This document shows, one piece after another, positions 60,001 through 63,000 of a stretch of 64,000 nucleotides of DNA (its first letter is position 1; every line of letters begins with the position of its first letter). The stretch lies in the IMG/VR virus record IMGVR_UViG_3300046047_000272; one strand, given 5' to 3'. The stretch is from a virus. Taxonomy: Duplodnaviria > Heunggongvirae > Uroviricota > Caudoviricetes. A program made the position numbers.

Positions 60001-63000
60001 ATCAGAAGAAGAAACTGATCGCCTCAATCGACAGGCTTGAACACCATATGGATAAGGTTATCGAAGAGGATCGATTAGCTGCTATCAGACCAGAGCTTAA
60101 TGGTCATCAACTAGCCGACTTATTAGGTATTCGTGAGGGGCGTCTTCTTGGTGACGCTTATCGACATATGCTGAATTATCGTATGAGCCATGGCGAGGTA
60201 GGCCAGCAAGCCGCAGAGGCTGAGGCTATTCGCTGGTTTCATAGTCTTCACAACGATTAAGCAGACGCTTAGATCTAGTTAGGCTCAGAACATGAGTAAA
60301 GATTCATGTTCTGAGCCTATTCTAATTGGTACTGACCGGAAAAGCCCCAAGATGATACGTTATACTAGATGAGACAAGAATCAGGATTAGACACGAGATC
60401 TAGTCTTAGAAGGCTATGACTAATCTCAGCCGGCAATGATCGTCTAATCTGATGTTATATGAGAGGGACTCGATGTCTGTTAACAATTTGATGAGACTCC
60501 TACTGCTCTTACCAGTCGTAATGACCGTCTTATCAGACGCCTCATGATGACGAGCATCTGGTATGGCTATGATGGCATCACGTTCCTGTTGATCATATGC
60601 ACTCATGATGGCCGTTGGTTTTGATCCTAGCCATGAAAGACTTGATGATCCTTGAACGAGCCATTGGCCATTGTTCTTGGTCATATGAGCAGACCAGGCA
60701 TTAGCATAACAGCGTTTGACGCCATGATGTCGTAAGGTCTTCCAATCGATGGTCTTCGTTCTGATGAGATCGTATAATCCTACGCTGACCATTTTATGCA
60801 TTAACTCGTGTTGATCGTTCAGTCCTTCTGACCATTCTGCAAGATGCTCTAATCCTCCAGAATAGGCAATGAGATCCTTTTGTATATTCGATGTGATGAT
60901 TGATCGTTCATCAGACCACCATTCTGGTTGATGCATCAGTGAATCCTGTGATGGCGACCATACTGGCTCGAAGATGATTGGATTACCTGTCTTCTTATGA
61001 TCGGTAATCATATTCATGAGAGCATGTCTGATAATCATGAGTGATGATGCGTATTCTTGCCGACCAGGACCGTGATTGATAGTGAAAGCCATCTTGTCAT
61101 TAGCTGATAGCACTGGTTGTATCGATGTGTCTTCTAACCATTGCTCTGCCTCATTCATGGTCGGCCAGTGAATCATGACCCGCCCGCGCTCATCGTGATG
61201 ATATCGACATGATGTTGGGTCCTTCGCTCTGCAGGGAACTACTTGACCATGAAAGACCACCCACGCAACATTCTTCCTCATAGTTTATAGATATGGAATA
61301 ACCGCTTTGACACTCATCGTGTGATGATTAATCCGTGTAATGATTATTTTTTATATAGTTTTTATCGTTGCTATGGCAACGTTTCTGAGGTTCTTCATAA
61401 ATTTTATTGGTGCATATGGTTGCATATCCTGTAGATGTATGTTATATTCATTATGTTAATTCATTTACGAACAATGGTTGTCTATTAAGGAGGTGTCTGA
61501 TGATGGTAATGTCATTACGATCAACGATCATATCGGAGCCTGGACAATCATTGCGTCATAATCATCAAGCAGATTGGTCACTGTCCATTAATCCTATGAG
61601 TGGAAAATCCTGCTTCGGTGATCCTAAGTATAGGTTTGAGATCGTGGAATGAATCGTTAAGTAATATAAGATTTAAGGCCCGATCCTCATGATGGAGATC
61701 GGGCCTTACGATATGTTAGCATGCATTATGCATAACGAGATGAGGGAAGATAGGTAATCCGCCTGTTTCGGGAACAGGAGAAAGCGAGTTCGAATCTCGC
61801 CGTCTCGACGCGCCGGTGACGACACAGTCTACACGATGTGTTATTATTGGTTGTGTTGCACTTGAGTAACACGAATAATTGAAGAGATCACGGTCATAAC
61901 GACACGCCAGTGATGACACGATTCACATCATGTGTTATTATGAATTGTGTTGCGCTTGAGTAACATTGATAATTGAAAAGATAACGGCTATTAGGAAAGC
62001 TTGGGAATCCGCCTGCTTTGGGAGCAGGAGACCGTCAGTTCGAATCTGACATAGCCGACGATGATCATCGAGGTCATCGCGACACGCCGAGATTGACAGC
62101 CAAGGCAAGTCACGATAGGATGATCACATAACTTAACGAGGATGGCAGTTCATTACTGCGGGAGATGTATGCGACGGTCACGATACCGGAATGTTAAAGA
62201 ATTATCGTGTTTGGTCACCATGACCACATGATTGTCATCATGTGAGCACGTGACGGAGCGCCTGAACACAGGATCGAGCATGGGGAAGACATCGCCCTTA
62301 CTAACCGATGGTGGCAACACCTGACGAGGATTACCTTGTATTCCGAGCACGCGATGATAACCCATGAGCGGGACACCAACGTCATTCATGAAACACTGAC
62401 GGCCCGTAGTCATTAAACAAGTTTCTTCAGATGAATCACATACGCAATCATACCAGTCATCATGATGGCATGAGAGCTGACCAATCAGGACGAATGATCC
62501 TGACCAATGATGAGAACAGCATGATCTCATCAGGGTATCGACCATGCCGCCCGCCGGTGAGCGTTAGCACCGGCATCTTTATTGGCTTATCGGCAAGAGG
62601 CATGCCAACGCACTGTTAATGCGTCAGAATCCCGTAAAAGGGTGTCGCAGGTTCGAGTCCTGCTAAGCCAGCTATGTCGTAGCAATACGGCAGAAGCATA
62701 TGCAGTTCGGTATGCTAGGGCAAGGTCCGATACTCCTTTGTTAGCGTATCCTTTACCGTATGATCCATTTCCAGTTTGAGAGCGAGTTGTTCTCAAAAGG
62801 TCATATGGTTTTTGCTAAGAAAGATTCGATCCTCCTCCTTTGTTTGGTGATTTTCCCGTATGACCTGTATCAGTTGAGAGTAAGTCGTCCTCAAAAGGTC
62901 ATACGGTTTTTGCTCAGGCAAGGTTCAATACTGTTCAGTTTCCTTTTCGTGACTGACTTGTTTTGGTGTTGTTTTGTTCTAAAGTAGTATTGATCACATG

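Follow-up and report, generated by a model that had tools for sequence, protein, structure and literature searches.

A tRNA with an asparagine anticodon, an Asn-type acceptor stem and a class II variable arm in the tRNA array of a very large phage

The 64,000-nucleotide stretch of viral DNA analysed here in its entirety (IMG/VR record IMGVR_UViG_3300046047_000272, Caudoviricetes; hereafter the window) carries, close to its 3' end, a tRNA gene that combines the asparagine (Asn) anticodon GUU with a long variable arm. This tRNA belongs to a widespread family of long-arm GUU tRNAs, whose genes lie in tRNA arrays of mobile elements, large phages among them. Our favoured explanation, to which we attribute a probability of about 0.6, is that it is a class-II-shaped tRNA-Asn, i.e. 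a functional elongator that reads AAU and AAC and is charged mainly as tRNA-Asn. An earlier note on this DNA had described a tRNA with a serine (Ser)-like body that might decode AAC and AAU as Ser, or, alternatively, an atypical Asn isoacceptor; it is the latter that is favoured by the acceptor-stem statistics, by arrays in which such a tRNA is the sole decoder of Asn codons, and by the codons of a phage gene, as described below.

The gene is real and well formed. ARAGORN called a 90-nt tRNA gene with anticodon GTT at 62583-62672 (+), and the Rfam tRNA model (RF00005) matched 62583-62671 over its full length (model positions 1-71 of 71, 51.9 bits for a gathering score of 29, E=1.4e-9), with about 18 nt placed as an insertion in the variable region. 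Both programs agreed with the earlier note, and the coordinates, anticodon position, 22-nt arm and G73 that it had given were borne out by direct reading of the sequence. The layout is the standard 7/5 one (7-bp acceptor stem, 5-bp T stem). The acceptor stem, TGGCTTA/TAAGCCA, consists of seven Watson-Crick pairs, including U1-A72 (T62583 with A62670), G2-C71 and G3-C70, and the conserved tertiary nucleotides are complete (U8, A14, G15/C48, G18G19, A21, U33, A37, G53, T54T55C56, A58 and C61). In the variable region, an inner helix CCC/GGG closes the loop GTAAAA, with U.U and A.G mismatches at the flanks and possible outer pairs; its last C can serve as Y48 in the G15-C48 pair. The minimum free energy (MFE) structure of the isolated tRNA was a cloverleaf with an extra hairpin (-32.5 kcal/mol, z=-2.5; 2 of 200 shuffled sequences were equally stable), and the variable arm folded alone reached -5.5 kcal/mol (z=-2.2). 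The parts of the gene are listed in Table 1.

The transferable Asn identity set of bacteria consists of the GUU anticodon (G34-U35-U36) and G73, and the amidotransferase GatCAB requires U1-A72 and the absence of U20a (PMC9976931). Ser identity relies on the long arm, with a contribution of G73; the pairs G1-C72 and G2-C71 are 'absolutely conserved' in most bacterial tRNA-Ser, and C2-G71 is an antideterminant for seryl-tRNA synthetase (SerRS) in E. coli (PMC9976931). SerRS disregards the anticodon and depends on the arm and on G73 (PMC9976931, PMC7609411). The window tRNA contains the full Asn/GatCAB set (GUU, G73, U1-A72, no nucleotide 20a) and a partial Ser set: the arm, G73 and G2-C71 are present, but U1-A72 replaces G1-C72 and the anticodon is neither NGA nor GCU. 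What it does not have is the class I architecture of tRNA-Asn, the variable region being 22 nt rather than 4-5 nt long. Scored on position-specific acceptor profiles, it obtained +4.4 bits for Asn, +5.7 bits for Gln and -22.1 bits for Ser, an acceptor stem of the Asn/Gln type. The 'Ser-like body' of the earlier note holds therefore for the long arm, G73 and G2-C71, and for the D arm and the ends of the variable arm of a sister subfamily (see below), but not for the acceptor stem. G73, which the note had counted as a Ser identity element, is indeed there, but it is equally the discriminator of tRNA-Asn (PMC9976931).

We scanned IMG/VR for the pattern CTGTTAA, followed after 24-36 nt by GGTTCGANTCC. 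This pattern selects long arms because its spacing is possible only with a long variable arm. It occurred in at least 120 loci; among the matches listed, ARAGORN confirmed long-arm GTT tRNAs in 100 of 120 loci, representing at least 92 distinct sequences, and the counts and frequencies given below for this viral class and its loci also refer to the matches listed. We defined the class by a 7/5 cloverleaf, the anticodon GUU, a hairpin variable region of at least 10 nt, G73, usually U1-A72, and location in a dense tRNA array, and the window tRNA has every one of these features. Across the 61 members with U1-A72, compensatory changes were observed at 17 of the 20 stem pairs, indicating selection as a tRNA, and the variable arms of the class folded better than shuffled versions (Wilcoxon p=8e-16). 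A covariance model (R3), built from long-arm GUU members with the window sequence left out, gave 67.6 bits to the window tRNA and 63.7-77.0 bits to independent long-arm GUU genes, compared with 51-68 bits for canonical tRNA-Asn, 44-56 bits for tRNA-Ser and at most 41 bits for the other tRNAs of the window. The class also has members in cultured phages, namely Pseudomonas phage Psa21 (annotated length 90 nt) and Aeromonas phage PX29 (84 nt), both annotated as tRNA-Asn. Compared with cultured phages by BLAST, the window tRNA itself matched through its 3' third alone, and most of the matched genes were annotated tRNA-Asn.

The closest siblings among the matches listed (L071, 3764-3854; L248, 340-430; L251, 4282-4372; L252, 11362-11452) have the 5' strand of the acceptor stem and the T arm in common with the window tRNA. 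These four siblings carry G3.U70, where the window tRNA has G3-C70; in the whole class, G3.U70 was present in 5 of the 92 sequences. G3.U70 is the major alanine identity determinant.

When the same pattern was used on one genome per GTDB species, 120 loci were retrieved, of which 98 were without any GTT tRNA and are most likely chance pattern matches. Almost all long-arm GTT tRNAs of bacteria were located in very dense arrays (11-36 tRNAs per 8 kb), such as those of Micromonospora and Verrucosispora. A few archaeal matches were rejected as class II tRNAs: they were tRNA-Asn genes in which additional sequence, read by us as an intron, follows the anticodon loop.

The acceptor stems of the class were compared with those of canonical phage tRNAs. 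U1-A72 was found in 62 of the 92 long-arm GUU tRNAs (67%) and in 27 of 44 canonical phage tRNA-Asn (61%), and in none of 56 phage tRNA-Ser (p=6e-19); it was also present in 34 of 52 phage tRNA-Gln. G2-C71 amounted to 43% in long-arm GUU tRNAs, 52% in canonical phage tRNA-Asn and 93% in phage tRNA-Ser; C2-G71 was found in 39% of the long-arm class, and A3-U70 in 20% of it as compared with 79% of phage tRNA-Ser. The position-specific profile assigned 55 members to Asn and 8 to Ser. Judged by these sequence features, the acceptor stems follow Asn, not Ser, throughout the class. We found in IMG/VR four GUU siblings and no Ser(GCU) sibling with the acceptor stem of the window tRNA. One candidate for the latter, in locus L260, was rejected since it proved to be an offset match inside a normal tRNA-Ser with G1-C72. 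The array of this locus (an IMG/VR contig of 332,864 bp) also includes a transfer-messenger RNA (tmRNA) gene (3327-3696) with the tag ANKLIANAMINQVVFA, and an 88-nt tRNA-like gene (4299-4386) for which ARAGORN gave the anticodon ATT.

Four arrays (L159, L171, L057 and L125) contained all 20 isotypes, and in each of them the long-arm GUU tRNA was the sole tRNA with an Asn anticodon, a separate tRNA-Ser(GCU) being present. As the sole Asn decoder of complete arrays, the long-arm GUU tRNA would fill the Asn slot. Two of these arrays, on a Verrucosispora sp. chromosome (L159) and in Micromonospora craterilacus (L171), comprise 34-36 tRNA genes; their Asn decoder is 90 nt long and has a 5' half like that of a Streptomyces-phage tRNA-Tyr. 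In 37 of the 100 viral loci, a canonical tRNA-Asn was found alongside the long-arm one. Long arms were also observed on other class I tRNAs of the IMG/VR loci L008-L127 (e.g. L252, 5140-5230; L048, 7037-7133), with 10 of 17 Ile(UAU), 13 of 64 CAU, 9 of 47 Thr(UGU), 7 of 53 Ile(GAU) and 5 of 47 Lys(UUU) tRNAs. They were enriched on decoders of ANN codons, which have U36 (14.5% vs 5.3% in the other class I isotypes, p=2.6e-6), in a set that is biased, as the loci had been preselected for a long-arm GUU tRNA.

We took advantage of the class Ib ribonucleotide reductase encoded in the window to find out what AAY (AAU or AAC) codons mean in this phage. The phage NrdE is 61% identical to Salmonella NrdE. 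In the alignment, 20 of its 24 AAY codons face an Asn of the Salmonella protein, including the one in the catalytic motif SNLCSE, and none of the 24 faces a Ser. Conversely, the 41 Ser residues of the Salmonella protein are aligned with standard Ser codons in 31 cases and with AAY in none. The earlier note had proposed that an atypical Asn isoacceptor might supply A/T-rich codons; codon usage in the open reading frames (ORFs) of the window was 531 AAT and 209 AAC, Asn making up an ordinary 4.4% of the codons. Because AAY codons stand at conserved Asn positions of NrdE and never at its Ser positions, AAY means Asn in this phage. A genuine reassignment, in which AAY would be read as Ser, as the earlier note had envisaged, has nothing in its favour beyond the Ser-like features listed in that note; it is excluded by the NrdE alignment, and we consider its probability to be practically nil.

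If the favoured explanation is correct, the enzyme that charges the long-arm GUU tRNAs would be either asparaginyl-tRNA synthetase (AsnRS), acting directly, or a non-discriminating aspartyl-tRNA synthetase (AspRS) followed by GatCAB. GUU and G73 would be the identity elements in both routes, U1-A72 being required for the amidotransferase. For all members, Asn charging is predicted from sequence, and the tRNA set of this phage is known from the part of the array that lies within the window. Several observations weigh against this explanation. AsnRS and AspRS, which are class II synthetases, approach their tRNA from the side of the variable loop and might be hindered by a long arm. The main recognition elements of SerRS, all of them present in the window tRNA, are the variable arm together with G73 and G2-C71 (PMC9976931, PMC7609411). 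The nearest neighbours of the D arm and of the whole body of the window tRNA were mixed, without a clear isotype; nor was the T-arm profile informative. With the anticodon masked, a covariance model of phage tRNA-Ser (R2) gave the window tRNA 47.5 bits, compared with 40.0 bits for the equivalent Asn model (R1). We rejected these two models as evidence on the isotype, because a Lys(UUU) tRNA scored 48.3 bits with R2 and 69.3 bits with R1, indicating that neither is isotype-specific. We also rejected the idea that the D arm is a barrier to SerRS, since the D arm of a tRNA-Ser(UGA) of Bacillus phages is similarly compact. The geometry of the variable arm, which might have been used as an argument against Ser (3-4 unpaired nucleotides 3' of the variable stem in the class vs 1 in tRNA-Ser, according to ARAGORN), was set aside because ARAGORN reports the inner helix only, which might be extended across a U.U mismatch.

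The recognition elements of SerRS, together with its disregard for the anticodon (PMC9976931, PMC7609411), raise the question whether SerRS would charge a meaningful fraction of this tRNA, AAY being then read as Asn or as Ser during infection, a deliberate or tolerated statistical mistranslation comparable to that of allo-tRNAs, nematode nev-tRNAs or Streptomyces tRNAProX. Consistent with this, the D arm and variable-arm ends of the sister subfamily match those of a bona fide phage tRNA-Ser(UGA), the coexistence with a canonical tRNA-Asn in about one third of the viral loci (37/100) suggests a non-redundant role, and the G3.U70 pair of the closest relatives hints that the acceptor identity is not uniformly Asn. 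Yet we regard such partial serylation as unlikely: the acceptor stems of the class are Asn-like, with U1-A72 in two thirds of them and in no tRNA-Ser, 39% contain the C2-G71 antideterminant, the window acceptor scores -22 bits on the Ser profile, and the long-arm tRNA is the sole Asn decoder of complete 20-isotype arrays. Furthermore, AAY codons specify invariant, catalytic Asn residues of the phage NrdE, so that insertion of Ser would be costly to the phage. The stronger proposal that the members are true dual-identity adaptors, of which SerRS would charge a sizeable fraction (and alanyl-tRNA synthetase, AlaRS, maybe those with G3.U70) to produce deliberate Asn-to-Ser or Asn-to-Ala mistranslation, appears to us improbable.

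We are similarly sceptical about a tRNA-shaped molecule that would be mainly non-decoding and would serve as a decoy or sponge for host tRNA-targeting nucleases or sensors, or as a handle for a phage tRNA-binding or repair factor. Phage tRNAs do neutralise tRNA-cleaving defences, tRNA-Asn(GUU) is targeted by the AriB nuclease of PARIS, and the possibility that some viral tRNAs exceed translation rescue has been raised in the literature on defence (PMC12409363, PMC10264068). The frequent coexistence with a canonical tRNA-Asn, the enrichment of long arms on other U36/ANN decoders in the preselected loci, and the presence next to the array of genes related to tRNA and translation (initiation factor IF3 and a homologue of the CCA-adding enzyme with an HD domain but no catalytic head) fit with such a role. 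On the other hand, the anticodon loop, acceptor stem, G73 and tertiary nucleotides are retained as in a decoding tRNA, some complete arrays have no other Asn decoder, and the nuclease or partner protein remains hypothetical. Finally, GUU is one transition away from GCU, phage tRNA arrays turn over quickly, and a terminator-like hairpin abuts the 5' end of the gene, all of which could be taken as signs of a decaying or neutral duplicate, either a tRNA-Ser(GCU) in which C35 has recently become U, or a functionless pseudogene. This is very improbable, since the stems are perfect, the conserved tertiary nucleotides are intact, at least 92 different sequences combine GUU with a long arm and show compensatory substitutions in the stems, the acceptor is not of the Ser type, and the IMG/VR siblings with this acceptor are four GUU and no GCU tRNAs.

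Some indications on the origin of the class came from its subfamilies. A large one has the D arm tactctaatggtaagag and a variable arm that begins with cgta and ends with atg. In cultured phages, the tRNA-Ser(UGA) genes of Bacillus phages PBC2 and BCP8-2 were the best, and the sole, matches to it, the resemblance covering the D arm, the first part of the anticodon stem and both ends of the variable arm; the acceptor stem of these tRNA-Ser is of the G1-G2-A3 Ser type, unlike that of the subfamily. The actinobacterial array version matched the 5' half of a tRNA-Tyr from Streptomyces phage BRock. Sibling L071 has a D arm of the tactctaatggtaagag type, and the D arm of the window tRNA, compact and class-I-like, is built in the same way, with compensatory changes at each of its four stem pairs. 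These resemblances suggest that the long-arm GUU family arose by repeated remoulding of class II tRNAs of the Ser or Tyr type, the direction of the change not being proven. A class II origin is plausible for the window tRNA because the D arm and variable-arm ends of its sister subfamily match tRNA-Ser(UGA) and because it keeps G2-C71. On more than one occasion, the anticodon of a class II tRNA would have become GUU and the top of its acceptor stem would have been rebuilt to the Asn type. As to the retention of the arm, we speculate that the defence nucleases by which hosts attack tRNAs might act poorly on a phage tRNA-Asn that carries it. Suggestive as regards this retention are the coexistence of canonical tRNA-Asn in 37 of the 100 loci and the enrichment of long arms on other ANN decoders; we know of no case in which an added variable arm confers nuclease resistance. 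tRNA-Asn(GUU) is a target of PARIS AriB (PMC12409363).

Compared with canonical tRNA-Asn(GUU) of bacteria and phages, the window tRNA has the same CUGUUAA loop, G73, U1-A72, 4-bp D stem, 7-nt D loop without 20a and GGTTCGAGTCC T loop; it differs by its 22-nt hairpin variable region and class II shape, the canonical region being 4-5 nt long. It resembles bacterial and phage tRNA-Ser by its long variable arm, G73 and G2-C71 and, through the D arm tactctaatggtaagag and the variable-arm ends (cgta...atg) of its sister subfamily, the tRNA-Ser(UGA) of PBC2 and BCP8-2. It departs from tRNA-Ser in the first pair of the acceptor stem (U1-A72, where G1-C72 is near-invariant in tRNA-Ser), in the third (G3-C70 rather than A3-U70), in its anticodon, which is not one for Ser, and in a D arm whose sequence is not Ser-like.

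Several other tRNAs combine a body and an anticodon of different families. The nev-tRNAs of nematodes are class II tRNAs with Gly or Ile anticodons that are charged with Leu and are mischarged in vitro (PMC3333845, PMC4300185). They share with the window tRNA a class II body with the anticodon of a class I family, and a long variable arm on a 7/5 cloverleaf. They differ in keeping the Leu identity of their donor (A73), whereas the window tRNA has G73 and an acceptor identity corresponding to the amino acid of its anticodon, and in residing in nematode genomes rather than in a phage context (RIIA, clamp loader, ribonucleotide reductase). The metagenomic allo-tRNAs have an 8/4 or 9/3 acceptor/T architecture (12-bp domain) and Ser or Ala identity (Mukai et al. 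2017, reviewed in PMC7609411). With their long variable arm, G73 and non-Ser anticodon, they are a precedent for Ser at non-Ser codons; the window tRNA differs from them by its 7/5 architecture and its Asn-type acceptor with U1-A72. Schuntermann et al. reportedly described in 2023 the tRNAProX of Streptomyces and Kitasatospora, which are said to have Asn (AUU) or Thr (AGU) anticodons on class I Pro bodies and a dedicated isoform of prolyl-tRNA synthetase (ProRS). Here too, anticodon and body belong to different families, Asn codons are concerned and the tRNA is bacterial or mobile, but the Pro body is of class I with its own ProRS, whereas the window tRNA has an Asn-type acceptor and no dedicated synthetase was seen within the window. 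To judge from these comparisons, nev-tRNAs, allo-tRNAs and tRNAProX keep the acceptor identity of their donor, and it is in the window tRNA that the acceptor end matches the anticodon. Phage tRNAs that escape host nucleases are also known, such as the T5 tRNA-Lys, tRNA-Thr and tRNA-Asn with respect to PARIS AriB (PMC12409363), and mutations of the anticodon loop have been hypothesised to play such a role (PMC10264068). Like these, the window tRNA is a phage copy of a defence-targeted tRNA, structurally unlike that of the host and located in a phage tRNA array; the escape variants have a few substitutions in the anticodon stem-loop, whereas the window tRNA has an added variable arm.

In the full-text literature on tRNA arrays, non-canonical tRNAs and tRNA identity, we found no description of a class II tRNA-Asn in phages. 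Genes of this class are already in GenBank as 'tRNA-Asn', and it appears that their class II architecture and their spread have gone unnoticed. In textbook accounts, the class II tRNAs of bacteria are those for Leu, Ser, Tyr and Sec. With at least 92 distinct sequences in IMG/VR, a class-II-shaped tRNA with an Asn anticodon and an Asn-type acceptor is common in phage and mobile arrays. Charging of these tRNAs with Asn would imply that a long arm is accepted by AsnRS or by AspRS/GatCAB and would document repeated alloacceptor remoulding in phages; it would also raise the possibility of a protective role of the arm against defences that target tRNAs. If they are partly serylated, they would constitute a viral mistranslation device and, should the dual-identity reading be true, the first natural mistranslating tRNA system in viruses. 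Since some members of the class belong to cultured phages, the Asn and the Ser readings can both be tested directly.

Table 1. Features of the tRNA gene and of its surroundings in the window
Feature	Position	Strand	Basis
Complete tRNA gene, positions 1-73, anticodon GUU, class II shape, CCA not encoded	62583-62671	+	ARAGORN, Rfam, MFE fold, covariance model R3
Acceptor stem, 5' strand TGGCTTA (U1, G2, G3), pairs with 62664-62670	62583-62589	+	sequence
D arm: 4-bp stem GGCA/TGCC, 7-nt loop AGAGGCA, G18 G19, no 20a	62592-62606	+	sequence
Anticodon arm ACGCA-CTGTTAA-TGCGT; anticodon GTT at 62615-62617	62608-62624	+	sequence, ARAGORN, Rfam
22-nt variable region CAGAATCCCGTAAAAGGGTGTC	62625-62646	+	sequence, fold
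T arm GCAGG-TTCGAGT-CCTGC; same in the closest IMG/VR relatives among the matches listed	62647-62663	+	sequence, Rfam
Acceptor stem, 3' strand TAAGCCA, and discriminator G73 (G at 62671)	62664-62671	+	sequence
tRNA array: Pro(CGG), Pro(UGG), long-arm GUU, Lys(CUU), Lys(UUU), doubtful His(GUG), Leu(UAA)	61736-63931	+	ARAGORN, Rfam
Terminator-like GC hairpin (62553-62574, ending 8 nt before the tRNA) and T-rich tail up to the tRNA 5' end	62553-62582	+	1 site found vs 1.5 expected by chance
Duplicated 44-nt hairpin, each copy followed by TTTTT, 3' of the GUU tRNA	62776-62819, 62874-62917	+	repeat family D3, 86% identity

The array at the 3' end of the window comprises seven tRNA genes according to ARAGORN. 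None of them encodes CCA, and the array continues past the end of the window. No convincing ORFs were found within 61282-64000, which contains the tRNA array and repeated promoter-like and hairpin plus T-run elements. The hairpin just upstream of the GUU tRNA could possibly be the end of an upstream unit or a processing structure, a weak case in view of the number of such sites expected by chance. The pair of 44-nt hairpins downstream (62776-62917) resembles tandem terminators. A tandem 94-nt repeat (61806-61993, +; 78% identity) extends from after tRNA-Pro(CGG) into the start of tRNA-Pro(UGG), and each copy contains a promoter-like site of the extended -10 type (ACGACA or ATGACA, 17 nt, then TG-TATTAT). 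The tRNA-His(GTG) called by ARAGORN at 63665-63735 (+) has a 3-bp, G.U-rich D stem; it was not reported by the Rfam tRNA model at E<=1 and obtained about 12-14 bits with our own models, so that it is a doubtful or degenerate tRNA.

The window derives from a very large phage. Its proteins include, besides the ribonucleotide reductase, a RIIA-like protein, a topoisomerase, a clamp loader, IF3 and the homologue of the CCA-adding enzyme, the latter being recorded on a contig of 491,046 bp. With megablast, no related cultured phage was found in INPHARED, and neither the exact pattern of the window tRNA nor the CCA-enzyme protein had a match in IMG/VR. Contigs encoding proteins of the window were retrieved from Logan as short contigs only, which end at the tRNA array, and a scan of metagenome contigs with the family of a neighbouring 291-aa protein gave no relative. 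The homologue of the CCA-adding enzyme (59274-60260, +) consists of the RNA-binding and HD domains only, without the nucleotidyltransferase head, and its relatives in related phage contigs are full length (481 aa). Its gene adjoins the phage IF3 gene (58623-59219) and lies just 5' of the array, whose tRNA genes do not encode CCA. Of the named cellular organisms, Streptomyces and Bifidobacterium have the closest relatives of this protein. The window also encodes SpaA/Cna-B-type pilin-like proteins, one of them with an LPXTG anchor (281-3451 and 39157-40587, +), which possibly serve for surface display on the infected cell or on the virion. Taken with the relatives of the CCA-adding enzyme, these LPXTG/SpaA pilin-like proteins suggest a Gram-positive host, possibly an actinobacterium.

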